A DNA stretch of 64,000 nt from the sequence record KC295538; one strand, given 5' to 3'. The DNA is from Escherichia phage PBECO4. Shown here one piece after another: positions 1 through 25,705 of this stretch. The notes under the pieces are model-generated. The model was not told the DNA's origin, ran no database searches, and was given only the letters and a program-made list of their open reading frames with translations. Each line of letters opens with the position of its first letter. Position 1 is the first letter of the stretch. The position numbers were made by a program, and so were the translations under genes.

Positions 1-165
1 CCACATATCGTTGTTGGTGTTGCGTCCCTAATAGTACACCCAACTTAGCTTCACACTCTAATAACAATCTGGTTTTGTATGGTAGACTTTGGAATCCTAT
101 AGTAGCATCTAATTTGGTAATTGCATAGTTGATTCGGATGAATCTTTCTTGCAATGTGATGTTGA

Positions 166-429
166 TCATTTCTTAGTACACCTCAGTGGTTGGGTCATTT
201 GATGAAAGTACAGCTTACCTCTGATTTCCAGTAGCAACTCCGCGATTAAGCGATTTACTTCTGTATCTTGATAGTTTGTTCCTAAGAATACACCCATCTT
301 TAACTCACGCATCATAATCATTTTCTTACTGTGTTGAATTTCTGGGTTGTGATAGATTGTATTACGTTTGTGCGTAATTTTTGTCATACGCTCGGTATAT
401 TCATCTTTACTTAAATTGATCATTTGCAT
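166..429 (-). CDS. small protein, family A (LGTNYQ-motif tandem paralog)
   Basis: Track ORF 166..456 trimmed to ATG at 429 (MQMINLSK..); N-term ..EY..R and C-term LGTNYQ motif shared with 16 neighbouring ORFs. Confidence 0.6.
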   Translation of the reverse strand: MQMINLSKDEYTERMTKITHKRNTIYHNPEIQHSKKMIMMRELKMGVFLGTNYQDTEVNRLIAELLLEIRGKLYFHQMTQPLRCTKK

Positions 430-458
430 GTTAATTACCCTTACATTTATTTTCAATA

Positions 459-698
459 CTATTCTTTAGTTTGTAGATATAGTTTTCTTCCAATGTATCT
501 CTTAAGTGCGATTATGTATTCATCTACATAATACTCCTGATAGTTTGTTCCTATGAATGCACCCACCTTTAACTCAAGTTTCATAATCATCTTATTTCCG
601 TGTTTAATGACTTCTCCGTGATGGATTTCATTAAGTCCAGGTGCAATTTTTACCAGGCGTTCTTTATATTTTGCTTGAGATAATTTAATCATTTTCAT
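459..698 (-). CDS. small protein, family A paralog
   Basis: Track ORF 459..725 starts on TTG; trimmed to ATG 698 (MKMIKLSQ..); FIGTNYQ motif. Confidence 0.6.
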   Translation of the reverse strand: MKMIKLSQAKYKERLVKIAPGLNEIHHGEVIKHGNKMIMKLELKVGAFIGTNYQEYYVDEYIIALKRYIGRKLYLQTKE

Positions 699-699
699 G

Positions 700-930
700 T
701 TAATTACCCTTACATTTATTTTCAATACTATTCATGAGTTCTATAAGATAGTTTTCTACCTTACCTTCCTGATAGTTAGTCCCTAGGAAGTTGCACAACA
801 CGGCTTCTATGATTTTGATTTTCCTGATATCAGGCTTCAATCTTTTGTTATTGAATATTTGAATCCTTATATCTCTGGATGCATTTAAACGTTTTTGATA
901 TTCATGGTAAGTTAAATTAATCATTTTCAT
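700..930 (-). CDS. small protein, family A paralog
   Basis: MKMINLTYHEY.. and FLGTNYQ motif; stop abuts next start. Confidence 0.6.
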   Translation of the reverse strand: MKMINLTYHEYQKRLNASRDIRIQIFNNKRLKPDIRKIKIIEAVLCNFLGTNYQEGKVENYLIELMNSIENKCKGN

Positions 931-1145
931 TTACGTTTAACCTCTCGCTGGAGGGCATCAATTAACATCAGTACAGCATTCTCTTGATAGTTTGTTCCTA
1001 AGACTGAAAGCATCTTTATCTCATTTACTAAAATCAACTTCTTTGAGGGTTCAATAATGTGACTATCATAAACGGCCTTACGTGCTGGATAAGTTTTCGC
1101 CAGTATAACATAAAATTCGTCTTTACTTAAATTAATCATTTGCAT
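927..1145 (-). CDS. small protein, family A paralog
   Basis: MQMINLSKDEF.. and VLGTNYQ motif; 4-nt overlap with neighbour. Confidence 0.6.
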   Translation of the reverse strand: MQMINLSKDEFYVILAKTYPARKAVYDSHIIEPSKKLILVNEIKMLSVLGTNYQENAVLMLIDALQREVKRK

Positions 1146-1354
1146 TTACTTTTAACCTCTTTCTGTAGAGCGTCAATCCATAGATCTACATACATTTGTT
1201 GATAGTTTGTGCCTAAGAGTGCACCTACATAGAGTTCAGTTACTAGTGCGTGCTTAAGGTTAGCTTGGATGCTCTTATCGCTTGATAAGATTTTCCTTCT
1301 GCTGGTGCATGTTTTCAGGAGTCTGATGTATTCAAAGCCTTGTAATTTTCTCAT
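1136..1354 (-). CDS. small protein, family A paralog
   Basis: LLGTNYQ motif; overlaps neighbours. Confidence 0.6.
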   Translation of the reverse strand: MRKLQGFEYIRLLKTCTSRRKILSSDKSIQANLKHALVTELYVGALLGTNYQQMYVDLWIDALQKEVKSKCK

Positions 1355-1566
1355 TCTTTTGATATCACCTTGTTACGTAAGGCACTTAACAATACGTCAG
1401 TGTAGATGTTTTGATAGTTTGTCCCTACGAAAGCACCCAACTTCATTTCAGCTATTATAACACATTTGTCCTCTTGTGCAATAGATTTGTTTAACACAAT
1501 ACTATACACTTTTGATTTGATAGTTTGTAACCTCCAATGATACTGATACTCATTAAGGATTATCAT
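1351..1566 (-). CDS. small protein, family A paralog
   Basis: FVGTNYQ motif; ATGA-type overlap. Confidence 0.6.
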   Translation of the reverse strand: MIILNEYQYHWRLQTIKSKVYSIVLNKSIAQEDKCVIIAEMKLGAFVGTNYQNIYTDVLLSALRNKVISKE

Positions 1567-1801
1567 TCTCTTTCCTCCAGATTTCGGTTCTCATGTGTTG
1601 GCAGTGTGCTTCGATGAACATATCTATTGATTTGGCAATTGCGTTTTTATCAGTGCCTGTCATCAGTACAAGCATCTCTGCCTCACTATGAATTAAACGC
1701 ATGATATCATAGGGTAATATTTCAGATACAGTGTCATAGTGTTTCTGTGCCAGTGTCTGCAATAGTTTACAATACATTTTGTGATTTAGTCTTTGTCGCA
1801 T
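1553..1801 (-). CDS. small protein, divergent family A member
   Basis: Same size and position in array; motif degraded to LMTGTDKN. Confidence 0.45.
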   Translation of the reverse strand: MRQRLNHKMYCKLLQTLAQKHYDTVSEILPYDIMRLIHSEAEMLVLMTGTDKNAIAKSIDMFIEAHCQHMRTEIWRKENDNP

Positions 1802-2058
1802 TGTTTATTCCATTCTTTTTTGGCTCTATGGGTTTTATATTGGATTTGGTTTCTCAATGCTGCCAGGTATCGTAGAATGAACAGTTCTTGATAGTTTGTT
1901 CCAATGAATTTCATAAGATAAACATCACCGTTGATAACATCCAATTCAGGTGCACCATGTAATGTATAGTTTTTTCTAAGGGTGTTAAGAATAGAGAAGA
2001 GGGCGGTTTGATACTCAGAGCTTGATAAAGTTTTCATATTTTTCCACAATTCGTTCAT
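1786..2058 (-). CDS. small protein, family A paralog
   Basis: FIGTNYQ motif; start may be internal ATG at 2037. Confidence 0.55.
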   Translation of the reverse strand: MNELWKNMKTLSSSEYQTALFSILNTLRKNYTLHGAPELDVINGDVYLMKFIGTNYQELFILRYLAALRNQIQYKTHRAKKEWNKQCDKD

Positions 2059-2272
2059 TTAGTTTTATCTGTATAAGATCCATTAGTTGTTCAAGATAAT
2101 CGGTACAATATTTCTCTTGATATTGGGTTCCCACAAAGTACAGCAACCATAGCTCATGAACTTTAACTTTCATCTCGTTCCATGAAAGTGCATCGTCATC
2201 GTAGATTACTCTTGCTTCTGGGGTGAGCTTTCGAATTCTAAGTGAATATTCATCGTTCGTCAAGTGTTTCAT
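2015..2272 (-). CDS. small protein, family A paralog
   Basis: MKHLTNDEY.. and FVGTQYQ motif. Confidence 0.6.
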   Translation of the reverse strand: MKHLTNDEYSLRIRKLTPEARVIYDDDALSWNEMKVKVHELWLLYFVGTQYQEKYCTDYLEQLMDLIQIKLNERIVEKYENFIKL

Positions 2273-2426
2273 TTACATTTATCCCTTATTAGATTTGTGA
2301 GTGCAACTATGTGTTCATGGATATAAAAATTCTGATGAGAAGTTCCAAGAAAGTACAACATCCCTCCCTCACTCTGCTCGACTTCTAGTTTAGTATCGAG
2401 TTGGTCAGATATGTTAATGAAAACCA
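2268..2426 (-). CDS. short family A paralog (52 aa, below track cutoff)
   Basis: Own translation of minus strand: MVFINISDQ...MLYFLGTSHQNFY..; fills the only gap in the array. Confidence 0.4.
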
Positions 2427-2651
2427 TTAGTTCTTTTCCTTTCTTTCTATTTGTTTCATAAGAACATTGATATACTCACCCGCAAACCTATTCTGATACT
2501 GCGTCCCCATGAATTCCAACATCCATACTTCAGCAACCTTTTCTTCAATTTCAGTCCATTGTAAGTACATCATAGTGAAGTAAATGGTGTTCTCTTTTTT
2601 TCTGGCACTCTTAGCACGGGCCTCGTATTCAAAGTTATTAATGATGTTCAT
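2427..2651 (-). CDS. small protein, family A paralog
   Basis: Track ORF 2427..2684 trimmed to ATG 2651 (MNIINNFEYEAR..); FMGTQYQ motif. Confidence 0.55.
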   Translation of the reverse strand: MNIINNFEYEARAKSARKKENTIYFTMMYLQWTEIEEKVAEVWMLEFMGTQYQNRFAGEYINVLMKQIERKEKN

Positions 2652-2865
2652 TACATTTGTCCATAATGTAATTCTTGAGTGCAACTATGTGTGCAATAAC
2701 ATACTCTTCCTGGAAGTTCGTCCCCAGTACAGCCATCATGCGTTTATCGGTGGTGTTTATCCTGTGTTCCCTTACACATAAACCTTCTTTGTGAGGAAGT
2801 GTAAAATATTTGTTTATTGCAGCAACGATAATTTTATTCTTCTCGGAGTTACTTAAATGTTTCAT
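2638..2865 (-). CDS. small protein, family A paralog
   Basis: MKHLSNSE.. and VLGTNFQ motif. Confidence 0.6.
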   Translation of the reverse strand: MKHLSNSEKNKIIVAAINKYFTLPHKEGLCVREHRINTTDKRMMAVLGTNFQEEYVIAHIVALKNYIMDKCNEHH

Positions 2866-3074
2866 AGTTTACTCCTGATATAATTCTGAAGTGCAATTAA
2901 GTATTCCCCTACATAATACACCTGAAAGTCTGTATCAAGGAATGCACCCATAAGTAAATCTTTTTCTAATACCCTTGATAAGTTAAGGTCTGCATTTGAA
3001 AGGTATATAAGTAAGATTTCACCCTGTGCGGAATTGAAACGTTTCTTATATTCTTCTGGTGTTAAAAAAATCAT
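2862..3074 (-). CDS. small protein, family A paralog
   Basis: MIFLTPEEYKKR.. and FLDTDFQ motif; 4-nt overlaps. Confidence 0.6.
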   Translation of the reverse strand: MIFLTPEEYKKRFNSAQGEILLIYLSNADLNLSRVLEKDLLMGAFLDTDFQVYYVGEYLIALQNYIRSKL

Positions 3075-3286
3075 AATTTGCTCCTGATATATTTCTCAAG
3101 AGATGACAAATACTTTTCCTCATAATACTTCTGATAGTCTGTTCCTAAGAATGCACCCAATAGTATATCATTTTCCAATACCTCGGCTAAGTTTAAATCA
3201 GAAGTCTCTTCGTATATTATGAGGATTTCAAGTTGTCTGGCAGCGATGCGTTCAGTATATTGATATGAGTTTTCTATAATAATCAT
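3071..3286 (-). CDS. small protein, family A paralog
   Basis: FLGTDYQ motif; close paralog of 2862..3074. Confidence 0.6.
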   Translation of the reverse strand: MIIIENSYQYTERIAARQLEILIIYEETSDLNLAEVLENDILLGAFLGTDYQKYYEEKYLSSLEKYIRSKL

Positions 3287-3492
3287 AATTTACTCTTTAT
3301 ATCTTGAATTAAAAATCGAATCCATTCTTCAACATAATCTTCCTGATGGTTTGTGTTCAGTACAGCCAACATGCGGATCTCTGCTCTTGCAACTTCAATT
3401 TCAGTTTTAGGAAGGTCTTTGCTGATATCCACCATTAAGTCCATGTATTTCAAGATAAGACCGTATGATTGGGTTCGTGTTATAGTTTTCAT
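3283..3492 (-). CDS. small protein, family A paralog
   Basis: VLNTNHQ motif; overlaps neighbours. Confidence 0.55.
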   Translation of the reverse strand: MKTITRTQSYGLILKYMDLMVDISKDLPKTEIEVARAEIRMLAVLNTNHQEDYVEEWIRFLIQDIKSKL

Positions 3493-3689
3493 TGTTTCCT
3501 CGTGGACAATATTTTATTTTTCAATGTATCCATATATTGAATCACCCATCTTTCCTGATAGTTAGTTCCCAAAGTAATCAAAAGGTATAACTCCATTCGT
3601 TCTACGTGTGTGTCTGTATTATAAATCTTTGTGAAGTTTTTACGTAACAGTGATTGATATTCTTCTTTATTTAAAATACGCATTTTCAT
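3489..3689 (-). CDS. small protein, family A paralog
   Basis: MKMRILNKEEY.. and TLGTNYQ motif. Confidence 0.6.
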   Translation of the reverse strand: MKMRILNKEEYQSLLRKNFTKIYNTDTHVERMELYLLITLGTNYQERWVIQYMDTLKNKILSTRKQ

Positions 3690-3883
3690 AGTTTACTCGT
3701 TATATCTTCAATTAAATACCAAATCCAATCGTTGACATACCTTTCCTGAAAGTTAGTTCCAATGAATAGTGCCATAATTAATTCACGCTTATAGGCAATA
3801 CCACGGTCATGGGACTTATACATTATCATAGCCATGTTATTGATAAGTCTTTCGTGGTGCTGTTCTTTAGTTAAAATACGCAT
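3686..3883 (-). CDS. small protein, family A paralog (first gene of array)
   Basis: MRILTKEQHHER.. and FIGTNFQ motif. Confidence 0.6.
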   Translation of the reverse strand: MRILTKEQHHERLINNMAMIMYKSHDRGIAYKRELIMALFIGTNFQERYVNDWIWYLIEDITSKL

Positions 3884-3969
3884 AGGATAAAATCCATAGG
3901 TTCATATGTGAAAAAACATCATACCCCATGTGAGGCATGATGTCAAGATGTTTTGTTCATATAAATGCA

Positions 3970-4335
3970 TTATACTTCAAATGAAATATTCCCAGTAGCA
4001 CGTGAGTCTTTACAATTCTCAATAGTAGTACATCCCAATTTTTGTATTTCACGTACCAATTCAATAGGAAGTTTAAAATCCCATTTCTTCGCTTCTTTTG
4101 CGAACGCTTTCTCGGACAGTACAACTAAGTTTTTTATACGAATCAATGAATAGATATCTGCATATTGATTTTCATCAATAGAAAATACCATTTCGTTATT
4201 GTTGCTAACAACTGATACAAGGGTGTCAGGTGCTTCAGTGATATCAGCAATGAATGATTTTATAGTAGATGTAGGTTTAAAAAACAACCATTCTACATTA
4301 AAGGAAGTACCACATTTATTAGATGATGGATTCAT
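3970..4335 (-). CDS. hypothetical protein (121 aa)
   Basis: Track ORF; sits upstream of array A, downstream of AT-rich promoter region. Confidence 0.55.
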   Translation of the reverse strand: MNPSSNKCGTSFNVEWLFFKPTSTIKSFIADITEAPDTLVSVVSNNNEMVFSIDENQYADIYSLIRIKNLVVLSEKAFAKEAKKWDFKLPIELVREIQKLGCTTIENCKDSRATGNISFEV

Positions 4336-4618
4336 AGTTCGGTGACCTCTAAAGTTGAGTTAATGTAACTAACATATAAAATATGAATGAAATATAATAT
4401 AGACTATATATTATCAGAATTATATAAAAAGTCAAGCCCCTATCACTCCTTTTTTCGAAGTCGCTAAGGTTACCCGCCCTTTAGCCCCCTACGCATTTTG
4501 CCATAGTCCAATCCCTTTTATTTCAAAAAAGTCAAGGGATTACCTATGCATTTTTTTAACGCATAATTTTAAAAACGCCTTGACTTTTTTCTGAATCAGT
4601 ACTAGATCCCTTTACGCA
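4336..4618. promoter_or_regulatory. AT-rich intergenic region with three TTGACT boxes, two in inverted orientation; probable promoter region for leftward operon
   Basis: aaaaagtcaag at ~4427 and ~4524, inverted copy ccttgactttttt at ~4587; no ORF. Confidence 0.35.
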
Positions 4619-4828
4619 TTAATCCTTCGTTACGCTAACGATTATCTGTGTATCCCCGTAGTCCTGCCATACTTCCACGCCATCGGTCGCCCTGGTTAGT
4701 CGTGCTGTCATCTGCTTAATGGTCTTAGGCTTTAGTGGAACCTGTTGCAGTACTGTACGCATAGCATCATTGACGTTATCATGTACGCCTGCAATAGTAC
4801 CTAGAACGCTGTATACTGTATAGAACAT
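4619..4828 (-). CDS. hypothetical protein
   Basis: Track ORF. Confidence 0.5.
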   Translation of the reverse strand: MFYTVYSVLGTIAGVHDNVNDAMRTVLQQVPLKPKTIKQMTARLTRATDGVEVWQDYGDTQIIVSVTKD

Positions 4829-4896
4829 ATGTATGTACTCCTGATATAGTTAAGGCCGCTACAAGGCGGCCTATGATGTTTGGTGATGTGTAACGC

Positions 4897-5298
4897 TTAC
4901 AGTCCTAAGATAGTGCGTGCTTCGTTACGTTCCGTACACAGCTGCATGATGTGAGCAAGTAAGTCCTTGCTAATGTATCCGTTGTCCATAGCTTCACGGA
5001 TAGATACATCATAAGCACCGAACCCCGTGCGAACGATACGCACATCATTCAGGTTAGTATTATAGATACCGCCGAGATCAACGGCTTCGAATACTACATC
5101 AACAGAATATTCATTGTTGCCATCGTGGAAGTTTTCCAGTGCAATAGTATTGGATACCGCCCAACGTTTGCAGTTTCCAATGATGCGGCACTGTTCCGGT
5201 TGGATAGTGCCATTACTTACAGCGTACTCCAGTGCATCTTTACCGAAAGTCCGAGCCAGTACTAAAACGTCAGCGAAGGAATTGATTGAGAAGGTCAT
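4897..5298 (-). CDS. hypothetical protein
   Basis: Track ORF 4897..5331 trimmed to ATG 5298 (MTFSINSF..) with AAGGAG 8 nt upstream; promoter+hairpin upstream. Confidence 0.65.
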   Translation of the reverse strand: MTFSINSFADVLVLARTFGKDALEYAVSNGTIQPEQCRIIGNCKRWAVSNTIALENFHDGNNEYSVDVVFEAVDLGGIYNTNLNDVRIVRTGFGAYDVSIREAMDNGYISKDLLAHIMQLCTERNEARTILGL

Positions 5299-5720: not shown

Positions 5721-5923
5721 TTTGAATCTCCTAACTTTGTGGGCCGTCGCACCATTGCCGCCCTACGAGATACATTATTGCAGTACTGATATACTTTGTC
5801 AATACTTTTTTATTAATAGTTTTAGTTCCACCAGCAGATAGTTACTCACCGTTATTAACTATATATTTTGGATACACTTATGCACCCTGTGGGCTGATTT
5901 GTTTCTATGCGTATATAATAGCA

Positions 5924-5951
5924 AAGGGACTGACCGGAGTCAATCCCTTTT
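5924..5951. terminator. TTGACT-containing hairpin flanked by A-run and T-run (bidirectional terminator-like, copy 1 of 12)
   Basis: aaagggactgaccggagtcaatcccttttt; same element recurs 11 more times. Confidence 0.5.
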
Positions 5952-8179: not shown

Positions 8180-8210
8180 AAAGGGACTGACCGGAGTCAA
8201 TCCCTTTTTT
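8180..8210. terminator. TTGACT-containing hairpin element (copy 2)
   Basis: aagggactgaccggagtcaatccctttttt. Confidence 0.5.
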
Positions 8211-11398: not shown

Positions 11399-11430
11399 AA
11401 AGGGACTGACCGGAGTCAATCCCTTTTTTA
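11399..11430. terminator. TTGACT-containing hairpin element (copy 3)
   Basis: agggactgaccggagtcaatccctttttt. Confidence 0.5.
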
Positions 11431-14827: not shown

Positions 14828-15019
14828 GATTCGTTTCCTTATTACTAGGGGAAACCGTTTCCCCTTTCGATGTAAAACATTATACGCTTATTGAGATAGT
14901 TTGCAAGTACTTTTTATCAAATACTTTAAAATAGTTTTCAGTACTCAAACATTATACAATAGATACACTCCTGCACCCTGTGGGCTAGTGAGCTATCTCT
15001 CAATGATTATATAATAACA

Positions 15020-15049
15020 AAATGGCTGACCGAAGTCAACCACTTTTTT
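15020..15049. terminator. TTGACT-containing hairpin element (copy 4, variant)
   Basis: aatggctgaccgaagtcaaccacttttttc. Confidence 0.45.
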
Positions 15050-15750: not shown

Positions 15751-15819
15751 TATACTTTCCTCGTTAGGTGTAAGGGGAACGTTTTCCCCTTCATGTAAAA
15801 CATTATACAGTACTGAAAA
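15751..15819 (-). promoter_or_regulatory. sigma70-like promoter + 5' UTR hairpin
   Basis: aggggaacgttttcccct hairpin. Confidence 0.55.
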
Positions 15820-16029
15820 CTAATTGCAAGTACTTTCCGAAAGTAAATGCTCATACGCTGCATTAACTACATTTTCAATAACCGACTGTACAGAAAGATC
15901 CCCCACGTCCTGGCTATAGTAGAAATTGCTTACAGTGGTGTCATCGTATGCAAATACTTTACCAGGTACTGCATCAATCACATACATATTAACCTTTAAG
16001 ATGTCGATCTTATCCTGTACAGTAAGCAT
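15820..16029 (-). CDS. hypothetical protein
   Basis: Track ORF. Confidence 0.55.
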   Translation of the reverse strand: MLTVQDKIDILKVNMYVIDAVPGKVFAYDDTTVSNFYYSQDVGDLSVQSVIENVVNAAYEHLLSESTCN

Positions 16030-18967: not shown

Positions 18968-19051
18968 TTGATTATCCTTAGTTACCAGGGGGAACCGCTC
19001 CCCCGTGCGATGTAAAATATTGTACAGTACTAAAAACTAATTGCAAGTACT
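18968..19051 (-). promoter_or_regulatory. sigma70-like promoter + 5' UTR hairpin
   Basis: agggggaaccgctccccct hairpin. Confidence 0.55.
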
Positions 19052-19288
19052 TTATGATTTTTTATAAAACATTTCGGCAGTAATATTTTTACCCGTTGGT
19101 TGTACTTTATCCAGAATTTTTTGATGCCCTGGCCGTCCAAATGAATATGATCCGTAAACCGTAAACCAGTAGTTACCCTCAGTGTTTACATGTACAGCAC
19201 AATAGGGAACGCCCCGCGATTCATCACCAATAAAGTGTGATACCGTTCCCGTTACATTAGCAGACGTTGATTTGATTTGTTCAAGCAT
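19052..19288 (-). CDS. hypothetical protein
   Basis: Track ORF. Confidence 0.55.
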   Translation of the reverse strand: MLEQIKSTSANVTGTVSHFIGDESRGVPYCAVHVNTEGNYWFTVYGSYSFGRPGHQKILDKVQPTGKNITAEMFYKKS

Positions 19289-19397
19289 TTTCTTATTCCT
19301 TAGTTACCAGGGGGAACCGCTCCCCCTATGCAAAACATTATACGCGTTTAAAAACTAATAGCAAGTATTTTAATAAAAAGTATTTGAAAAATAATTG

Positions 19398-19426
19398 TTG
19401 ACAACTGCATCCAGTACTGGCATAAT
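19398..19426 (+). promoter_or_regulatory. + strand sigma70-like promoter (TTGACA-N17-CATAAT) driving a short noncoding transcript
   Basis: ttgaca 19398..19403, cataat 19421..19426; downstream box ctaacccaccgggtgc; no + strand ORF. Confidence 0.45.
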
Positions 19427-19500
19427 TACTACATCAAGACGAAACAGTCACTAACCCACCGGGTGCCGAGATCCGTCTATTAAATGATTCAGTACTTAAC

Positions 19501-19524
19501 AATAAAGGGGATCAATCGATCCCC
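19501..19524 (-). terminator. hairpin terminator (minus strand; may also stop the + strand transcript)
   Basis: ggggatcaatcgatcccc with flanking A/T runs immediately 3' of gene 19531..19752. Confidence 0.5.
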
Positions 19525-19530
19525 TATGTA

Positions 19531-19752
19531 TTACTTAGTAAGGTATAAACAGAAGTCACCTTTATTTGCTACGCCGCCAGTGTAACGCGATGAATAGTTA
19601 GAAACGTCCTGGACTTCTGCTATTACCAGTGTATCATCATTCAATTCGTCGCAGAAGCAAACGGCTGGATCTTTTACGCCGATCTTGTCGGCATGTTCCC
19701 GCATAGATTTAACCAGTGCTTCCAGTTGAGAAAGAGTAGTGATATTAGCCAT
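19531..19752 (-). CDS. hypothetical protein
   Basis: Track ORF trimmed to ATG 19752 (MANITTLSQ..). Confidence 0.55.
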   Translation of the reverse strand: MANITTLSQLEALVKSMREHADKIGVKDPAVCFCDELNDDTLVIAEVQDVSNYSSRYTGGVANKGDFCLYLTK

Positions 19753-19836
19753 TGTATTTTCCTCATTACCAGGGAGAACCATTTCTCCCCTCTATGTAAA
19801 CTATTATACAGTACTGAAAACTAATTGCAAGTACTT
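19753..19836 (-). promoter_or_regulatory. sigma70-like promoter + 5' UTR hairpin
   Basis: gggagaaccatttctcccc hairpin. Confidence 0.55.
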
Positions 19837-20025
19837 TTAATTAAATTCCATAAAATCATTCTCAACGTGCACAACAATTTGATTGTTTTTAAAGTCCGCA
19901 GCGAACTCGATGCAATCATAAACCGCTTTTTGTGTTACAATGCTATGAGTACCAATCGGATTAATAGGGGATTGAATTGTTTCAATCTCGTTCCCTTGCT
20001 CATTAACAATTAAAATATTAAACAT
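19837..20025 (-). CDS. hypothetical protein
   Basis: Track ORF. Confidence 0.5.
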   Translation of the reverse strand: MFNILIVNEQGNEIETIQSPINPIGTHSIVTQKAVYDCIEFAADFKNNQIVVHVENDFMEFN

Positions 20026-20081
20026 CGCTGTTACTCCTGGGTAGTGTTAACTCGATATAAAGTATTATACGCCTTTATTGC

Positions 20082-20324
20082 TTAGTGTCCAGTACTTTTT
20101 AAAACATATTCATAAACACTACGCACATCATTGATCATCGCCTGGCGGTTAGCAGGTAACGCACCAGGATCGCCACTATCCCAGGCATTGATAAAACTCC
20201 CCAAATCATGAAAGATTTTATTCTGTAAGCCGATTAACTGCAATTCTTTTTCTTCAAGCTCTTTGATACGGTCAATTAAAAGACTCATTAGATAATCCTC
20301 AGTACTTAATTGTAAGATCCGCAA
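20082..20324 (-). CDS. hypothetical protein
   Basis: Track ORF. Confidence 0.5.
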   Translation of the reverse strand: MRILQLSTEDYLMSLLIDRIKELEEKELQLIGLQNKIFHDLGSFINAWDSGDPGALPANRQAMINDVRSVYEYVLKSTGH

Positions 20325-20632
20325 CGGTTACAATAGTGCCCGTCTTCCTCGTCATCGTCAACGAATTGACCGACGAAATTATCTACTTTCTCTTTGAGAT
20401 TCTGATAATTGTTTTCAACTTCCTTTAGACGTTCCTGGTAGTATTCCAGGGCTTGCACATACGCCGCCTCAGCCGTTTTCGCTCTTAAGGCTAAATTCAT
20501 GCCACGCGTTTCATCGTACATCCAAAAGCCATCGGTGCACTCACTGATTGACAATGATTTGGTTAACACTTTATAGTCAATTACTTTGCTCATTAGATAA
20601 TCCTCAGTAAAGGCGGGAACCACACCCGCCAT
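20306..20632 (-). CDS. hypothetical protein
   Basis: Track ORF; C-terminal CNRC. Confidence 0.5.
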   Translation of the reverse strand: MAGVVPAFTEDYLMSKVIDYKVLTKSLSISECTDGFWMYDETRGMNLALRAKTAEAAYVQALEYYQERLKEVENNYQNLKEKVDNFVGQFVDDDEEDGHYCNRCGSYN

Positions 20633-20649
20633 TGATTCAGTACTGAATG

Positions 20650-20889
20650 TTACATTCCAACCATTGCAGCACGGATCGCCGTAGTGCTATACTTGAATCC
20701 GTCCGGTGTTGTAGTAGTACCGTTGGCTTTTAATCTGCGGTACATACATTGGGCCGCAATATCTTTAGTTTTACATTGTGCGATGCAACTTTGAGCAAGC
20801 CGATATAATGACTCACCGTTATTAATCCACAATGAAACATTCCAATGAGTTTTGTTTTTGTGCCCGTTGTAAGTTTTAGTAGTAGCCAT
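20650..20889 (-). CDS. hypothetical protein, paralog of 22698..22937
   Basis: Shared GHKNKTHWNVSLWINN..LYRLAQ and C-terminal TPDGFKYSTTAIRAAMVGM. Confidence 0.6.
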   Translation of the reverse strand: MATTKTYNGHKNKTHWNVSLWINNGESLYRLAQSCIAQCKTKDIAAQCMYRRLKANGTTTTPDGFKYSTTAIRAAMVGM

Positions 20890-20985
20890 TTTTAAATCCT
20901 CGTTTAATTGAGCGGGAGAACCATTCCCCCGCCTCGATATAAAGTATTATACGCTTTTAAACTTAGTTTGCAAGTACTTTTTAAA
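20890..20985 (-). promoter_or_regulatory. sigma70-like promoter + 5' UTR hairpin
   Basis: gcgggagaaccattcccccgc hairpin. Confidence 0.55.
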
Positions 20986-21597
20986 TTAATATGCGATTGA
21001 TTCTACTACGTCATCAATAACATTGAATTGATACTCGTTACCCTCGATCAGTGCCGTGATGTTCTCAGTAGTGAATTGATCCTCATATGCATTCTCTAAA
21101 TCACGGTACAACTTGCGGGACAATTCACGAATAGTATCAGTGAGTAGTTCCTCAAGCTCATTAACTAACGTTTCTTGTTTTGCGGTTAAATCAGTGTAAG
21201 CCGATTCAATGTACCCGCTTACAGTATTCTCATGCGAGTAGTGGGAGTGCGAACGCTTTACACTCATCGCCAAATCATCTTCATTCAGCAAGTGACGGAT
21301 TGAGCGATACTTAGTTAATGCTCTTACCTTGCGTAAAAACTTCACTGCGTCAACGTGGTCAGTACTGATTGATGCACCGTCACCCTGGGACCAAAAACCA
21401 CTGAATTGTATTTCAGCTTCATTAATGCCATATTCCGGTAGTACTGTTTCTTTATAGTATTCAATTTCACTTTCAGAAAAATAATTGTCGTTTGAGTTTT
21501 TTTCACGTTCCCGAACCAGTTCGATAGCTGACGTTTGTTGTTCTGCGTTCAATTCAGAAAAATCCATAACGAAAGTAGTAGTAGTGATAGTTTTCAT
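20986..21597 (-). CDS. hypothetical acidic protein (203 aa)
   Basis: Track ORF. Confidence 0.6.
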   Translation of the reverse strand: MKTITTTTFVMDFSELNAEQQTSAIELVREREKNSNDNYFSESEIEYYKETVLPEYGINEAEIQFSGFWSQGDGASISTDHVDAVKFLRKVRALTKYRSIRHLLNEDDLAMSVKRSHSHYSHENTVSGYIESAYTDLTAKQETLVNELEELLTDTIRELSRKLYRDLENAYEDQFTTENITALIEGNEYQFNVIDDVVESIAY

Positions 21598-21819
21598 TTT
21601 GTAACCCTCATTCAGTAGTTGATGTAAGTATTATACGCTTTTAAAAACATTTGTCAAACTATTTTATCAGGGGAGTTTTTCGTGTGCCTTACTCCTGGGC
21701 TACTTAACGGGAAGTTACTTATTTCGTTCCCCGTCCTGATGTAAAACATTATACGCCTTTAAACATAGTTTGCAAGTACTTTTTAAAAATAGTTTTCAGT
21801 ACTGAATATTAAAAAAGTA

Positions 21820-21848
21820 TTGACAGCATTATCAAGTACTGGCATAAT
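21820..21848 (+). promoter_or_regulatory. + strand sigma70-like promoter (TTGACA-N17-CATAAT) driving a short noncoding transcript
   Basis: ttgaca 21820..21825, cataat 21843..21848; downstream ctaacccaccgggtgc box then atagatacactcccgcaccctatgggct box. Confidence 0.45.
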
Positions 21849-22022
21849 ATACCACATGACAACAGCTAACCCACCGGGTGCACAATTGTAACTATACTAA
21901 ACTAATTTTTCTATAGATACACTCCCGCACCCTATGGGCTACGGCTTATCTGCCAATGAATACATTATGCCAGTACTGACAAAATAAGTCAATACCGGCA
22001 ATTGTAAAGATTTGTAAACTAC

Positions 22023-22253
22023 TTATACTGCAATCGCGTCCAGGCTATAATAATAATAAGTGCCGTATTGGTGTACTTTATTACCTTTTATTTCAGTACT
22101 GAATGAATCCGAACGATTTGCATATGATGTTAATTTAAAGTACTTTGATTTGCTGATACGTTGCCATACACCACAGATCCGCTGTAAGTAAGTAGTTTTA
22201 TTCGTGGTAGTATCTTTTACGGTTTTAACTTCAGTCATATACATATTAGTCAT
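22023..22253 (-). CDS. hypothetical protein
   Basis: Track ORF. Confidence 0.55.
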   Translation of the reverse strand: MTNMYMTEVKTVKDTTTNKTTYLQRICGVWQRISKSKYFKLTSYANRSDSFSTEIKGNKVHQYGTYYYYSLDAIAV

Positions 22254-22340
22254 TTTTATTACTCCAGGTTATAGGCGGGAAGAGTTCCCGCTCTCGATGT
22301 AAAACATTATACGCCTTTAAACATAGTTTGCAAGTACTTT
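22254..22340 (-). promoter_or_regulatory. sigma70-like promoter + 5' UTR hairpin
   Basis: gcgggaagagttcccgc hairpin. Confidence 0.55.
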
Positions 22341-22607
22341 TTATTCAAGTACTGCAATCTTTTTAGTACGGTACACGGTCACGCGGTTGCCCTTTCGGTC
22401 GAGCTTTATTTCTACCACTCGACGCGATACACTATCGGGACTTTTTAAGGCCGCTAACCAGTACTGTAATGATCTGGCTGTACTACGCTTTACAATGGCC
22501 CAACGTTTACCACGTTCCGATTGTACGCCCATATCTTTAAACGTTGCCCCGTCCTGGCGTGCGGCGATCCGAGCTTGTTCACGCGTCGCAAAATACTTAA
22601 TATTCAT
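22341..22607 (-). CDS. hypothetical protein, paralog of 9448..9843
   Basis: Trimmed to ATG 22607 (MNIKYFATREQARIAARQDGATFKDMG..). Confidence 0.6.
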   Translation of the reverse strand: MNIKYFATREQARIAARQDGATFKDMGVQSERGKRWAIVKRSTARSLQYWLAALKSPDSVSRRVVEIKLDRKGNRVTVYRTKKIAVLE

Positions 22608-22697
22608 GCTGTTGCCCTTATCGTTGGTGTATGAATAAAACACTATTATAAAGTACTATCGCAAAAAATGATAGTACTTTAAATAAATTCTATTCTA

Positions 22698-22937
22698 TTA
22701 CATTCCAACCATCGCCGCACGGATCGCAGTAGTGCTATACTTAAAGCCGTCCGGTGTTTTATCTTGTCCAGTCTGTTCTAAAAATAGCATCATATGACGG
22801 GCCGCATCATTACGATTAGTATTGGCGGCAATAAAGTCCTGGGCCAACCGATACAATCCCTCATCGTTATTAATCCAAAGGCTTACATTCCAATGAGTTT
22901 TGTTTTTGTGACCTAAGAACATTTTTGATTTAGCCAT
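22698..22937 (-). CDS. hypothetical protein, paralog of 20650..20889
   Basis: Trimmed to ATG 22937 (MAKSKMFLGHKNKTHWN..). Confidence 0.6.
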   Translation of the reverse strand: MAKSKMFLGHKNKTHWNVSLWINNDEGLYRLAQDFIAANTNRNDAARHMMLFLEQTGQDKTPDGFKYSTTAIRAAMVGM

Positions 22938-23019
22938 TTTTTTAATCCTCTTATATAGTGGGGAACTATTCCCCACCTGATGTAAAGTATTATACGCTTT
23001 TAAATTTAGTTTGCAAGTA
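22938..23019 (-). promoter_or_regulatory. sigma70-like promoter + 5' UTR hairpin
   Basis: gtggggaactattccccac hairpin. Confidence 0.55.
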
Positions 23020-23253
23020 CTATTTTTTCAGTACTGGTAAACCTTTGATCTCACCTGGCTGTACTTCCTCAAAGGCGACCGCCATCATACGGCTATCATC
23101 TTCCTTACATTCTTCCATCGCATCACAAAAATGATTAATAACGTCCGGTGCAACGTCAACCACATCAAACAAGCCAACCTCAGTGCAACGGCTTAAAGCG
23201 TTTAATAGGTCAGTCAGTGCAACGGATTGAGAAACAGTTAAAATAGTACTCAT
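23020..23253 (-). CDS. hypothetical acidic protein
   Basis: Track ORF. Confidence 0.55.
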   Translation of the reverse strand: MSTILTVSQSVALTDLLNALSRCTEVGLFDVVDVAPDVINHFCDAMEECKEDDSRMMAVAFEEVQPGEIKGLPVLKK

Positions 23254-23347
23254 ACAATTAATCTCTTAATTATAGTGGGGAACTATTCCCCACCTGATGT
23301 AAAACATTATACGCTTTTAAACTTAGTTTGCAAGTACTTTATTAAAC
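23254..23347 (-). promoter_or_regulatory. sigma70-like promoter + 5' UTR hairpin
   Basis: Same hairpin as 22938..23019. Confidence 0.55.
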
Positions 23348-23710
23348 TTATTTGTAAATTTTGCCACTGTCAGCCCATACCAGGAAACGAGGCATATTAT
23401 CCCATGCATCTTGTTTTAAATTTAAACCGTGCAATTCCTCAGTAGTTGCCATCCCTGGTACTGGCTTACTACACACCGCGAAATTTTCGCCCATATACTG
23501 ATAAACCATCGTCAAATCATTTGAGATCATCTTATGGATCATCGCATCAAGCATCACGGTAGCGGCGTATTGTTCACGCTTAAGCGGCAGCATTTTAATC
23601 AGTTCGCGGTATGCGTCAATGTGAGTTTTAACCGTTGCCGCCGGAAGATCTTTCATCTCGTCGCGGAAGTTAACCAGGTTAGCAATAATTTTGGTGATTT
23701 GAGTTGCCAT
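23348..23710 (-). CDS. hypothetical protein
   Basis: Track ORF trimmed to ATG 23710 (MATQITKIIA..). Confidence 0.6.
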   Translation of the reverse strand: MATQITKIIANLVNFRDEMKDLPAATVKTHIDAYRELIKMLPLKREQYAATVMLDAMIHKMISNDLTMVYQYMGENFAVCSKPVPGMATTEELHGLNLKQDAWDNMPRFLVWADSGKIYK

Positions 23711-23800
23711 CGTTTTAATCTCTCTTAAAGTGTAGCGGGAACACTTCCCGCTCTCGATGTAAAACATTATACGCTTTTATCAGTACGGTGCAAGTACTTT
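23711..23800 (-). promoter_or_regulatory. sigma70-like promoter + 5' UTR hairpin (last unit before noncoding hub)
   Basis: gcgggaacacttcccgc hairpin. Confidence 0.55.
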
Positions 23801-23825
23801 CTACAAATACTTTTAAAATAGTTTT

Positions 23826-23917
23826 CTTTCTATATAGGAGTACTATTATTCAGTACTGAATCAATCCAGGGGAACTATCTTTCTATATAGGAGTACTATT
23901 ATTCAGTACTGAATCAA
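23826..23917. repeat. 39-bp direct repeat x2
   Basis: ctttctatataggagtactattattcagtactgaatcaa at 23826..23864 and 23879..23917. Confidence 0.7.
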
Positions 23918-24069
23918 CCAAATCACTACTACACCCCATAAAACGGCCTCAGACGCATTCTAACGCATTAATACACCTAAGCTATACATTTGCACCACTC
24001 CCAACAATCCAGGGCGTTACGGGCCGTTTAAACGCGTTAAATTATTTTCAATTATTTTGTTTTTAGGTA

Positions 24070-24097
24070 TTGACTTGATCCTGAAAAAGCGTATAAT
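24070..24097 (+). promoter_or_regulatory. + strand promoter (TTGACT-N16-TATAAT)
   Basis: ttgact 24070..24075, tataat 24092..24097; downstream gggtgcgg ... ccgcaccc long-range inverted repeat. Confidence 0.45.
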
Positions 24098-24284
24098 TAC
24101 TACATAGACGCGAGAAAGCGGAAACCCCAGAGGGTGCGGAATTACGCCCAAAATTCAAGATATAAAAAAAGGATACACTCCCGCACCCTAGCAGGTAAAC
24201 GCACTTTCTCAGTACTGAATTATAGTACCATAGTCCGGCCCAGGATGGCAAGCAAATTAATTAAAACTTTTTTCATCCAGGGTA

Positions 24285-24312
24285 TTGCTTTATTTTTCCA
24301 GTACTGTATAAT
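24285..24312 (+). promoter_or_regulatory. + strand promoter with TTGCTTTA box upstream of TATAAT (resembles a T4 MotA-box middle promoter)
   Basis: tattgctttat 24283..24293, tataat 24307..24312; downstream cccaccgggtgc box. Confidence 0.35.
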
Positions 24313-24533
24313 AGTTCCATCAAGTCGAGAAAGACTCAAGCCCACCGGGTGCATAGTTACGCCCAAAATTCAGTACTGAAAAAATTTTTAAAAATATCCG
24401 TCCAGGCCGTTGACATTGCCCCCAGTTTATAAGATAATGATTCCAGATTCAGAAAAATCTAACTCCAGATACTGCGGGGAAACTATCCCCACGCGGTAGG
24501 GGAACTATTGGAAAAAACAAAATAAAATTTTGA

Positions 24534-24680
24534 TTTAGCCGTCTATACTTCCAGACGTGTAACCATCTAGCCGTTTAGCCGTCCAAACGTCTAGCCATCC
24601 AGCCATCCAGAAATCTAGCCGTTTAGCCGTCTAGATGGATAGCCATCTTTACTTCCAGACTTCTGGAGGGCTAGACATAT
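24534..24680. repeat. iteron-like cluster of ~8 short direct repeats (TAGCCGT/TAGCCAT) flanked by tacttccagac repeats
   Basis: ctagccgtttagccgtc, ctagccatccagccatccag, ctagccgtttagccgtctag; tacttccagac at ~24546 and ~24651. Confidence 0.6.
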
Positions 24681-25705
24681 CTACGTCCAAAATCCACCCA
24701 GGGTAACTACGCCCAAAATCCGTCAGTACTATACCATAGATCTATCTTTTGAAAGGGAGTATTCAGTACTGCCACAATAGCCCTCACTATGTTACCCTAG
24801 GAGGATGAAGACTATCATGTAGTACTGAATACTGTTAGAGGGAATCCACCAGCTTGTGCTGGTGGCATAATGCTTTAGATTAAAATCAGTACTGACACCA
24901 TTCTGTTAATATCAGTACTGTTATTACGATTTTCATATGAGGTTCAAAAAGATGTACCACCACAGGAGGAACTATCTTTTCTGTACTGTCTCACGACAGG
25001 AGGTAGAGTAAATGAATTGTTCGCAGCAACTCATCACCCTATGTAGAACATTATACAGTACTGAATCATAATGTCAATAGCTTTCTTTCATTATTCAGTA
25101 CTGATATTCTTGAGAACTACCCGACTACAAACATCATTATATCCCACAAATCATAAACGTCCCAACGTAAATTTCAACTTTCGAAGATCCAACTTTTATT
25201 TCATAGGTACTCCAAAATTTTTAGGATCGAGATTTAGGATGGAGTACTAACCAACTTTTTGCTGGAGCCTCAAGGGGTAATGGAATTTTACCCCGAAGGG
25301 TAAAGGGGTAATTGAAATTAAGGTGAAAGTAATAATTCAGTACTAATCATTGCGTGATTACTTTTGATTACATTTGATGTAATTTGAAAAATGGAAAAGG
25401 AGCTTGGAAACTACAAAGTACGGCAGACTTCCTCTGCCTACTTAGTGGCATATCAGTACTGAATCCTTCCCGTGCATTCTTGAGCATTCTTGTCTATACT
25501 AATCAGTACTGAATCATATATAATCATTCTGTGATTCTACGGTGCTCATATAAATGTTTATATATGATTACTTATGACTACCTATGATTACGGGGTTTAG
25601 CCTGGGGAGAATCCTAGTGATCGCATTTGTCCAGGCTGAATTTTAACAATTCGCCTGTACATAAAGGTTGTTCACTAGGAGCTTCCCCTGTCTACTTGTG
25701 TTTAA

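Follow-up and report, generated by a model that had tools for sequence, protein, structure and literature searches.

The 283-bp intergenic region at 4336-4618 of Escherichia phage PBECO4, located between the minus-strand ORFs 3970-4335 and 4619-4828, contains several TTGACT boxes, and the question arises of what these boxes do. The phage is an Asteriusvirus, a Rak2-like jumbo coliphage, and the window analyzed here is a 64-kb stretch of its genome (64,000 nucleotides of record KC295538). A sequence-only reading of the window had taken the boxes as one symmetric promoter region for a leftward operon of 17 genes. Is the region a single regulatory unit of this kind, or do several separate elements meet here?

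Three TTGACT boxes and an inverted repeat

The 11-mer CTTGACTTTTT occurs in three exact copies within 164 bp and nowhere else in the 64-kb window. Box 1 (4426-4436) and box 2 (4526-4536) are on the minus strand, and box 3 (4579-4589) is on the plus strand. Boxes 2 and 3 extend to a perfect 13-nt inverted repeat, which reads AAAAAAGTCAAGG at 4525-4537 and CCTTGACTTTTTT at 4578-4590 on the plus strand, with 40 nt between the arms. On the gene-sense strand the box 2 arm reads CCTTGACTTTTTT, giving a U6 tail. The spacer (4538-4577) is A+T-rich, with a G+C content of 25% (75% A+T), and holds an inner 9-bp hairpin composed of CTATGCATT (4544-4552) and AACGCATAA (4558-4566). Both parts of the earlier observation are borne out, namely the repeated boxes, each within a few bases of its given position (~4427, ~4524 and ~4587), and the inverted copy around an AT-rich core. 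In 300 dinucleotide-preserving shuffles of 4336-4618, an 11-mer in three copies never appeared (0/300, maximum 9), and a 13-nt perfect inverted repeat appeared in a single shuffle (1/300). Boxes 1 and 2 also have a 30-nt direct repeat in common, with 70% identity.

Escherichia phage BF17 shows 99.9% identity to the region, and 34 further Asteriusvirus records align to 4448-5100. About 30 phages show almost no variation in the core 4448-4618, a level of conservation equal to that of the adjoining coding DNA. A coding role of this core was considered, as SD-15_S21 has an annotated 66-aa plus-strand CDS over the matching stretch (2947-3147 of its locus). It was rejected because the window has no counterpart of that CDS. 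An ORF scan of 4468-4618 returned none of at least 20 aa, and the variable part outside the terminal repeat described below holds small ORFs of 28 and 26 aa only. No Rfam covariance model reached its gathering score anywhere in the 64-kb window, and ARAGORN found neither tRNA nor tmRNA in the whole window.

The left edge of the direct terminal repeat

We found that AGGTTACCC, which starts at position 4467 of the window, is identical to the first bases of the linear record of phage G17, whose two 20,668-bp repeat copies are identical and whose ends were determined by coverage. The 20,993-bp repeat of fEgEco12 was mapped by PhageTerm and confirmed by restriction digests (PMC13070987). Its edge falls on the same base, 4467, and reads AGGTTACCC, and the annotated repeat_region of vB_Ec-M-J starts with AGGTTACCC at this base as well. 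The opposite edge of the direct terminal repeat (DTR) in the mapped relatives ends in CTGCCTACT and corresponds to position 25442. Homology to these mapped termini shows a genome end between 4466 and 4467, which we infer from three independently analysed relatives whose two edges are identical in sequence to those of the window. The edge site (4463-4469) reads GCTA^AGG, where the caret marks the cut or the repeat edge, and CCT^TAGC on the gene-sense strand. The segment 4448-5100 is found at two places in those records that contain both repeat copies, and the 121-aa gene just outside the DTR is found at one place only in BF17.

The DTR (4467-25442, 20,976 bp) is present as a single copy in the collapsed window and contains small leftward genes and consensus sigma-70 promoters. 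Rak2-like phages with long DTRs (G17, fEgEco12, vB_Ec-M-J, fENko-Kae01, Muenster and CBB) belong to the same phage group as the window phage and carry the same repeat. In CBB, the terminal repeat holds short early-type genes and RpoD-like promoters (PMC5259590). Hairpins embedding a -35 element recur in the repeat of the window at 5950, 8207, 11426 and 15046. The last DTR gene (4619-4828, minus strand) encodes 69 aa of phrog_17833, and 152 nt separate its stop codon from the repeat edge. This stop-to-cut distance is 151-160 nt across six lineages.

Boxes 2 and 3 are located 60-123 nt inside the DTR, that is, from the physical genome end. The genome end separates box 1 from boxes 2 and 3, so that in the left-hand repeat copy they do not share a molecule end. 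Since the palindrome is inside the terminal repeat and box 1 is outside it, the three boxes do not constitute one regulatory unit.

Box 1 as part of a candidate promoter

By its sequence, box 1 is the -35 element of a candidate promoter of the sigma-70 type (RpoD, host). This promoter (4408-4435, minus strand) consists of the -35 TTGACT (4435-4430), a 5/6 match to TTGACA, a 16-nt spacer, a TG, and the -10 TAATAT (4413-4408). Situated in unique DNA, 30-40 nt from the edge of the terminal repeat, it faces the leftward genes, the same-strand gene downstream starting at 4335. The -35, the 16-nt spacing and the -10 are kept, despite divergent spacers and flanks, in G17 and Turkey5/JNE01 (TTGACT-16-TAAAAT), fEgEco12 (TTGACT-16-TATTAT) and EJP2 (TTGACT-16-TATAAT). 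Munch has TTGACA-17-TATACT at this site.

The 17 small leftward ORFs of the array (166-3883) are real, as had been claimed, since all of them match phrog_4148 and are true paralogues. In one detail the earlier reading did not hold up. Box 1 precedes a 121-aa ORFan gene (3970-4335, minus strand), and both this ORF and a further promoter-like site intervene before the array. The latter, a second sigma-70-like promoter (3918-3946, minus strand; TTGACA-17-TATGAT) with 11/12 matches in a consensus scan, is directly upstream of the first array member, which starts at 3883. As a stronger match that adjoins the array, it contradicts the statement that the box region is the only candidate promoter. The ORFan gene and the second promoter sit in a 535-bp segment (3887-4421) that is specific to the window phage and BF17 and that other Asteriusviruses lack. 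The segment is joined at a 14-nt ATATAAAAAGTCAA box, which is the core of box 1, and homology among phages ends about 17-20 nt outside the repeat. A tblastn search with the ORFan among 50,697 phage records found BF17 only, and no match of the 121-aa protein to Pfam or PHROG was obtained.

Boxes 2 and 3 have no acceptable -10 at 16-18 nt on either strand and were absent from the consensus promoter scan. Box 2 is followed at this distance by ATTGGA or TTGGAC, and box 3 by TAGATC, whose sixth position is not a T. Box 3 also has no rightward gene nearby that it could serve. Of the proposed promoter for the leftward genes, the box 1 part is credible, because box 1 faces these genes and is kept in relatives, but boxes 2 and 3 lack the -10.

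Box 1 would start transcription into unique DNA, which is the ORFan gene here and the paralogous small-gene array in most relatives. The array of the window would be served by the second promoter at 3946-3918. The Salmonella SD phages have no box 1, and their array begins with a gene that starts 22 nt past the repeat edge; therefore their array must be transcribed through this region. Read-through from further upstream, which the sequence-only reading had named as contrary to its proposal, is thus indicated by sequence for the SD phages. We searched the literature for Asteriusvirus transcript maps and promoter studies and found none.

A predicted hairpin of boxes 2 and 3

The gene-sense RNA of 4440-4625 folds at -47.1 kcal/mol (z -3.3), and the opposite strand at -26.3 kcal/mol (z -1.6). 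The inverted-repeat segment alone gives -23.6 kcal/mol, and its core without the A/U tracts gives -15.9 kcal/mol and is followed by U6. The hairpin is rod-like, 66-78 nt in length, and located within the 152 untranslated nt that follow the last DTR gene. The U-tract CCCUUGACUUUUUU is directly 3' of the stem, 83-96 nt past the stop of the 69-aa gene. The symmetric arrangement of A6, stem and T6 downstream of a stop codon is similar to bidirectional intrinsic terminators. The stem here, however, is interrupted, with a 7-bp core containing 4 G-C pairs and an apical part, an interrupted "loop", of 40 nt, and there are relatives without the U-tract. Neither the consensus scan of the window nor the ARNOLD annotation of G17 called a terminator on the hairpin.

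A long hairpin is found at this position in every lineage (z -1.6 to -5.7). The gap of the AGTCAA...TTGACT pair is 40 nt in the main clade, 23 nt in Munch/fENko and 7 nt in A4/RaK2/Muenster, and the stem is extended with different bases in each lineage. In Turkey5/JNE01 and EJP2 the TTGACT pair is absent altogether. A fixed dimeric operator with two half-sites was rejected, as the arm gap is 7, 23 or 40 nt by lineage. Covariation is not claimed either, as the arms of the window and fEgEco12 differ but the changes merely shift a bulge. The U-tract is mixed in relatives, being U4AU in fEgEco12, U4CU in Munch and missing in A4 and RaK2, and a separate canonical terminator precedes the equivalent hairpin in both RaK2 and Muenster. 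Because A4 and RaK2 have no U-tract and RaK2 and Muenster have a separate terminator, the ancestral role of the inverted repeat was probably not termination. In the SD phages, any termination at the hairpin must be leaky, since the array there must be transcribed through it.

We infer that the role of the hairpin is either transcript 3'-end formation or packaging recognition. Most likely it would form the 3' end of the DTR early transcripts, by termination and/or processing. At the right-hand repeat copy it would give the unique genes downstream partial insulation, and at the left physical end it would cap transcripts that would run off otherwise. As the TTGACT/AGTCAA pair is kept near the cut in several genera, the hairpin may also be recognised as DNA by the packaging machinery.

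Conserved motifs at both repeat edges

The motif TTGGACTATG (4502-4511, minus strand) is unique in the window. On the gene-sense strand it precedes CCT^TAGC by exactly 32 nt, and this TTGGACTATG-N32-CCT^TAGC module stands between the cut and the hairpin. The main clade, Turkey5/JNE01 and Munch/fENko all retain the N32 spacing, with an N32 sequence that is itself unrelated. The counterparts are GGACTATG-N32-CT^TAGC in Serratia BF and CGGACTGTG-N33-CT^TAGC in RaK2. The RaK2 cut was predicted from sequence alone and agrees with the PhageTerm annotation of Muenster. CCTTAGC by itself cannot be the whole cleavage signal, because it occurs four times in the window.

The left-edge CT^TAGC is present in Asteriusvirus, Munch-like, Alcyoneusvirus and Eneladusvirus sequences, and the PhageTerm edges of fENko-Kae01 and Muenster also read CT^TAGC. 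Six mapped edges from three genera read (inside^outside) CT^TAGC, CT^TAGT, CT^TAGC, TA^TAGC, CT^TAGC and CT^TAGT. The right-edge site (25443-25466, plus strand) lies just outside the repeat and reads ^TAGTGGCATATCAGTACTGAATCC, with the general form ^TAGYGG...AGTACTG. It is the sole part of a 301-nt query that is still matched by RaK2-like Klebsiella phages. The Muenster repeat edge is identical to it, and the Serratia BF record opens at the same right-edge motif. The ^TAGY facing outward at both DTR edges in three genera suggests symmetric nick sites, which would correspond to 5'-RCTA^AG on opposite strands. Staggered nicks at these sites, followed by fill-in synthesis, would duplicate the repeat.

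Closer to the gene, ATCAGTACTAGATCC (4595-4609, plus strand) matches the 15-nt pattern ATCAGTACTRRATCC exactly and is invariant across all aligned relatives. The window holds just one other exact match, with 0.04 expected by chance; it falls outside the repeat, 10 nt from the right edge, and a further site, at 25502, has one mismatch. A scan of IMG/VR with GCTAAGG-N20-50-CATAGTCCAAT gave 15 loci, one of them a true relative (phage 121Q) and the others chance matches in unrelated coding sequence. Published accounts of Rak2-like repeats give their length and detection, and we found none describing the edges, ^TAGY, TTGGACTATG-N32 or the inverted repeat.

Comparison with other phages

In K-like Staphylococcus phages, 12-bp inverted repeats, TAAGTACCTGGG and CCCAGGTACTTA, bracket the long terminal repeats (PMC6022877). 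As in the window, a short inverted motif divides a multi-kilobase repeat from unique DNA at both edges, and there is a loose resemblance in sequence (TAAGTACC vs TA^AGGTTACC and GGTACTTA vs CCTACT^TA). However, the two edges of the repeat described here have only about 5-6 nt in common, the phages are unrelated, and the window has a longer conserved flank at each edge, TTGGACTATG-N32 on the left and TAGTGGCATATCAGTACTGAAT on the right.

The concatemer junction of T7 and T3 is known for the staggered-nick (Watson) model, its pac sites and a transcription pause/termination signal. The DTR edge of the window is similar in that cis-elements are clustered there, with a putative transcription-stopping element near the cut, and in that opposite-strand nicks at both edges plus fill-in would explain the repeat duplication. 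The T7 repeat, however, measures 160 bp and relies on an RNA polymerase encoded by the phage, whereas the repeat here is 21 kb long and has promoters of the host sigma-70 type. T5 has long terminal repeats that carry pre-early genes under strong host-type promoters. The multi-kilobase repeat of small function-unknown genes behind near-consensus sigma-70 promoters resembles them in layout. In T4-type phages, promoter-early stem-loop (PeSL) cassettes are proposed to shuffle small ORFs. An early-type promoter box likewise borders a variable small-gene cassette in the window (3887-4421, joined at the box 1 core). Unlike a PeSL, box 1 is not in a hairpin, and a single insertion event was seen, with putative recombination at the box.

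Discussion

All things considered, we believe that 4336-4618 is probably a composite of adjoining elements and not a symmetric promoter, namely the junction of unique DNA with the left edge of the ~21-kb DTR, where a genome end, the box 1 promoter and a hairpin of putative role adjoin. It appears very unlikely that the leftward array starts from the three boxes acting together as a symmetric promoter region, bidirectional or under operator control. All three have a near-consensus -35 followed by a T-run, and box 1 is credible as a promoter. Box 3 is followed at 17 nt by TAGATC, Munch has TTGACT-16-TAGATA at the equivalent place, and box 3 of fEgEco12 resembles the standard TTGACA-TTATGATTCAGTACTG-TATAAT promoters of the phage with the -10 lost. 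In the SD phages, which have no box 1, the array must be driven by something upstream. However, no -10 with the essential final T stands at 16-18 nt from box 2 or 3, no rightward gene is near box 3, the palindrome is inside the repeat and the physical genome end divides box 1 from it, a stronger promoter match is nearer the array, and Turkey5/JNE01 keep box 1 and the array without boxes 2 and 3. Boxes 2 and 3 might alternatively be decayed copies of an early promoter cassette, produced by recombination at a hypervariable junction and now functionless. The direct repeat shared by boxes 1 and 2 would fit such an origin, as would the recombination hot spot at the junction, where the ORFan segment is joined at ATATAAAAAGTCAA and homology breaks close to the repeat, and the recurrence of promoter-in-hairpin cassettes through the repeat. 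We give little credence to this explanation, as several genera keep the pair at the equivalent position, the 13-nt arms match perfectly in the main clade, and 4448-4618 is as invariant as the flanking coding DNA.

The same inverted repeat could combine with the TCAGTACT palindrome, TTGGACTATG and CT^TAGC into putative recognition DNA for the terminase or a nuclease partner, a pac-like site, possibly an extruded hairpin or cruciform, with any effect on transcription being incidental. We consider this conceivable though rather doubtful. The hexamers AGTCAA/TTGACT themselves are kept in the main clade, A4, Munch/fENko and RaK2/Muenster while the nearby intergenic DNA is unalignable, and the element is within a module of fixed spacing to the cut, with a box 2-to-cut distance of 63-64 nt in the main clade and Munch and 88-89 nt in A4 and RaK2. 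The exact ATCAGTACTRRATCC matches are confined to the two repeat edges, and RaK2 and Muenster already have their canonical terminator upstream. On the other hand, Turkey5/JNE01 and EJP2 retain the cut site and its flanking motifs without the TTGACT pair, which is therefore dispensable for cutting in these phages. An arm gap of 7 to 40 nt is unsuited to a fixed dimeric binding site, and the strand-asymmetric folding in the window points to RNA. A fuller version, which we put forward only tentatively, is that the final ~155 bp of the repeat would serve as a packaging and end-formation signal of Rak2-like jumbo phages, comprising TCAGTACT, the AGTCAA/TTGACT hairpin, (T)TGGACTRTG, a 32-33-nt spacer and CT^TAGC, with ^TAGYGG...AGTACTG as its partner. 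Opposite-strand 5'-RCTA^AG nicks 21 kb apart would then duplicate the repeat by fill-in or strand-displacement synthesis in each packaging event. If this is true, transcription arrest and cleavage could be coupled by a hairpin that stops the host RNA polymerase near the cut, much as by the pause signal of the T7 concatemer junction.

For annotation, the region favored here as a composite junction would be better labeled as a terminal-repeat boundary with a promoter and a hairpin than as a palindromic promoter. Genes to the right of the junction would be present in two copies per virion and genes to the left in one. The left TTGGACTATG-N32-CCT^TAGC and the right ^TAGTGGCATATCAGTACTGAAT, with their common RCTA^AG, constitute a candidate cleavage module for these ~350-kb phages. 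The edge motifs may serve as a simple rule to place the genome ends in Rak2-like records that were deposited as circular or opened arbitrarily, and known ends with a promoter just outside them would be useful for engineering these phages.

Sequence boxes and the genome end in the intergenic region

The intergenic region 4336-4618, flanked by a 121-aa ORF (3970-4335, - strand) and a 69-aa ORF (4619-4828, - strand), holds three exact copies of the 11-mer CTTGACTTTTT: box 1 (4426-4436, -), box 2 (4526-4536, -) and box 3 (4579-4589, +). No further copy was found when the whole 64-kb window was scanned. Boxes 2 and 3 remain complementary beyond the 11-mer, giving a perfect inverted repeat of 13 nt per arm (4525-4537 and 4578-4590), with 25% G+C in the 40-nt spacer. 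Among 300 dinucleotide-preserving shuffles of 4336-4618, no 11-mer ever occurred three times (0/300) and a 13-nt inverted repeat arose once (1/300). The sequence-only reading had therefore described the boxes correctly, and the arrangement goes beyond chance.

Comparison with related genomes indicates that the physical genome end very probably lies within this region, at 4467; its position is already on record for close relatives. The G17 deposit is a linear genome whose terminal redundancy was deduced from read coverage (PMC6563267). It carries two identical repeat copies of 20,668 bp, and its base 1, AGGTTACCC..., corresponds to 4467. The direct terminal repeat of fEgEco12, located with PhageTerm and verified by restriction digests, is 20,993 bp long (PMC13070987). 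Its end coincides with the base equivalent to 4467, as does that of the annotated repeat_region of vB_Ec-M-J, so the repeat start falls on one base in three independently analysed relatives. The other edge, ...GGCAGACTTCCTCTGCCTACT, is at 25442. The repeat thus spans 4467-25442 (20,976 bp); it appears only once here owing to the collapsed representation of the window. In records with both repeat copies, the sequence right of 4448 has two places, and the 121-aa gene has one in BF17, consistent with these repeat limits. Counted from the first repeat base (+1 = 4467), box 1 is outside the repeat (-40 to -30), boxes 2 and 3 are inside (+60 to +70 and +113 to +123), and the stop codon of the last repeat gene is at +153.

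Escherichia phage BF17 matches the region at 99.9% identity. A further 34 Asteriusvirus jumbo phages (PBECO4/121Q/G17 group, ~350 kb) match only rightwards from ~4448, because they lack a 535-bp segment (3887-4421) carrying the 121-aa ORF; in the alignment, the box 1 core of 14 nt, ATATAAAAAGTCAA, is where common sequence resumes. This ORF encodes an ORFan protein with no Pfam or PHROG match, and BF17 is its only other carrier among 50,697 phage records. The segment, found in the window and BF17 only, has its own downstream promoter and, as an insertion, separates the box 1 core from the ribosome-binding site of the gene that opens the array, 17 leftward phrog_4148 paralogues (166-3883). Relative to deposited genomes the window is a mosaic: the left repeat edge (3900-5100) is 99.9% identical to BF17, and the right edge (25300-25600) is 100% identical to phAPEC6 and only 80.6% to BF17.

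Probable promoters outside the repeat

Box 1 is probably part of a conserved host-type promoter, predicted by the promoter scan at 4435..4408 (-) with TTGACT, a 16-nt spacer, TG and TAATAT. A like promoter stands just outside the repeat in relatives with diverged flanks: TTGACT-16-TAAAAT in G17 and in Turkey5/JNE01, TTGACT-16-TATTAT in fEgEco12, TTGACT-16-TATAAT in EJP2 and TTGACA-17-TATACT in Munch/fENko-Kae01. It is directly upstream of the first array gene in most relatives and upstream of the 121-aa ORFan in the window. The box 1 promoter is an ordinary one. The claim that this region holds the only candidate promoter for the array is wrong, since a second, better match (TTGACA-17-TATGAT, 11/12 matches) lies at 3946..3918 (-) in the gap before the array. 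In the Salmonella SD phages (SD-15_S21; also SD-1, SD-2 and SD-6), box 1 is missing together with the outside spacer of 30 nt, and the start of the first array gene is 22 nt past the repeat edge (L004, the SD-15_S21 locus, 2990-3010); there the array would therefore have to be transcribed from inside the repeat.

A symmetric or bidirectional promoter, as had been proposed, is not borne out. No usable -10 is found 16-18 nt from box 2 (ATTGGA or TTGGAC) or box 3 (TAGATC), neither box is among the promoter-scan matches, and box 3 has no rightward gene. On these grounds both were rejected as promoters.

A shared motif at the repeat edges

The mapped edges were read from inside the repeat outwards, with ^ marking the cut. 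The left and right edges are GGTAACCT^TAGCGAC and CTGCCTACT^TAGTGGC in Asteriusvirus (window), GTCATGCCT^TAGCCAC and GAGAAGATA^TAGCGGA in fENko-Kae01 (PhageTerm; PMC11218385), and TATTAGGCT^TAGCACT and AAACGGACT^TAGTGGC in Muenster (PhageTerm annotation). All 6/6 edges carry ^TAGY and 5/6 carry CT^TAG. Written for the strand that provides the mature 5' end, the site is 5'-RCTA^AG, and the two edges carry it on opposite strands. For CTTAGY to be shared in fixed register by non-homologous left and right edges, we roughly estimate a chance of 5 in 10,000, or a few in a thousand with two orientations and slight register slack. The shared motif is supported by the RaK2 cut GGCT^TAGCAC, which was predicted from sequence and agreed with the end of Muenster's annotated repeat, by the Serratia BF record, which starts exactly at AGAAGATA^TAGCGG, and by the right-edge site ^TAGTGGCATATCAGTACTGAAT, the sole stretch of a 301-nt query still matched by RaK2-like phages.

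We tentatively regard the repeat edges as candidate symmetric nick sites. Staggered nicking with fill-in is the classical model for regenerating terminal repeats, and the edge arrangement would fit it. For short motifs in inverted orientation at the borders of a repeat, K-like Staphylococcus phages provide a precedent (PMC6022877).

A 15-nt pattern, ATCAGTACTRRATCC, matches exactly only at 4595-4609 and 25452-25466 (0.04 expected in the window); the first site is 129 nt into the repeat from its left edge, the second 10 nt beyond its right edge. A one-mismatch copy lies at 25502-25516, 50 nt beyond the right-edge copy.

A predicted hairpin in the tail of the repeat

As gene-direction RNA, the box 2-3 segment is predicted to fold into a rod-like hairpin with lower stem AAAAAAGUCAAGG/CCUUGACUUUUUU, upper stem UUAUGCGUU/AAUGCAUAG and a 5-nt apical loop (-23.6 kcal/mol in full, -15.9 kcal/mol for the core without A and U tracts). 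The repeat's final transcription unit (promoter 5802..5774, genes 5720-4619) is located upstream of it. The tail 4440-4625 folds at -47.1 kcal/mol (z -3.3) in gene sense and at -26.3 kcal/mol (z -1.6) on the opposite strand; U6 follows the hairpin directly 3' in the gene-sense RNA, and the window has no other terminator after the last repeat gene. These features argue for an RNA role in the window's clade, and 3'-end formation is therefore taken as the most likely present role, although we put it forward only as a possible one. The main rival, a DNA-level role of the hairpin region in packaging, seems to us somewhat less likely. Three findings speak against a plain terminator: in A4 and RaK2 no U-tract follows the hairpin, in RaK2 and Muenster a canonical terminator of its own stands upstream of the hairpin, and in the SD phages transcription has to pass through the hairpin.

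The tails of seven lineages, each running from the stop codon to the cut, were compared, with RaK2, Muenster and Serratia BF added later. The tail measures 151-160 nt in six lineages, Turkey5 having a tandem duplication, and CT^TAGC stands at the edge in all lineages compared. TTGGACTATG precedes CCT^TAGC at a distance of exactly 32 nt in the main clade (the Asteriusvirus group with the window), Turkey5/JNE01 and Munch/fENko; these 32-nt spacers are unrelated between lineages, G+C-rich in one group and A+T-rich in another. The corresponding sequence is GGACTATG-N32-CT^TAGC in Serratia BF and CGGACTGTG-N33-CT^TAGC in RaK2. The AGTCAA...TTGACT pair has a gap of 40 nt in the main clade, 23 nt in Munch/fENko and 7 nt in A4, RaK2 and Muenster, and was not found in Turkey5/JNE01 and EJP2. 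Stem extensions also differ by lineage (A6/T6 plus GG/CC in the window, AATTG/CAATT in A4), and every lineage has some long hairpin at the tail position (z -1.6 to -5.7). The Turkey5 duplication (L011, 1296-1440; ~75 bp, beside the repeat edge) spans the A+T-rich stretch, an AGTACT motif and the 3' end of the 69-aa gene.

Palindromes and promoter cassettes in the repeat

AGTACT occurs 266 times in the window versus 21.6 expected from base composition (12.3-fold), with similar enrichment of CAGTAC and GTACTG. Per 4-kb bin, AGTACT is absent from 1-4000 (the phrog_4148 array), numbers 21-32 in the repeat and 9-19 past 25.4 kb. The palindrome TCAGTACTGA (up to 1 mismatch) has 55 copies versus 2.2 expected, densest at 19.4-25.9 kb. 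Many consensus sigma-70 promoters in the repeat hold it at fixed places, as TTGACA-N8-CAGTACTG-TATAAT or AGTACTTGCAA-N10-CAGTACTGTATAAT (for example 25077..25050, 5802..5774, 15829..15802 and 19830..19803, all -), which looks like a shared operator or promoter subclass. A 28-nt repeated hairpin, AAAGGGATTGACTCCGGTCAGTCCCTTT (5923-5950, 8180-8207, 11399-11426 and 15019-15046, all -), embeds a TTGACT -35 and is followed by GC and a TATTAT -10. Its copies form terminator-plus-promoter cassettes between small genes and were labelled as terminators by the G17 annotators. The right-hand quarter of the repeat (~19000-25442) has few annotated genes in G17 (19,040-20,934 is empty); promoter-like sites occur there on either strand, and TCAGTACTGA is at its densest.

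A composite junction

The feature is real and is a composite junction, read originally without knowledge that a genome end crosses it. It would combine a conserved promoter of host type immediately outside the repeat, a conserved cut-site module at the repeat edge and, inside the repeat, a TTGACT-armed hairpin in its untranslated tail. No description was found in PMC13070987, PMC6563267, PMC5259590 or PMC11218385 of the motif shared by the edges, the module of fixed spacing or the conserved hairpin, and all three are modestly interesting and directly testable.
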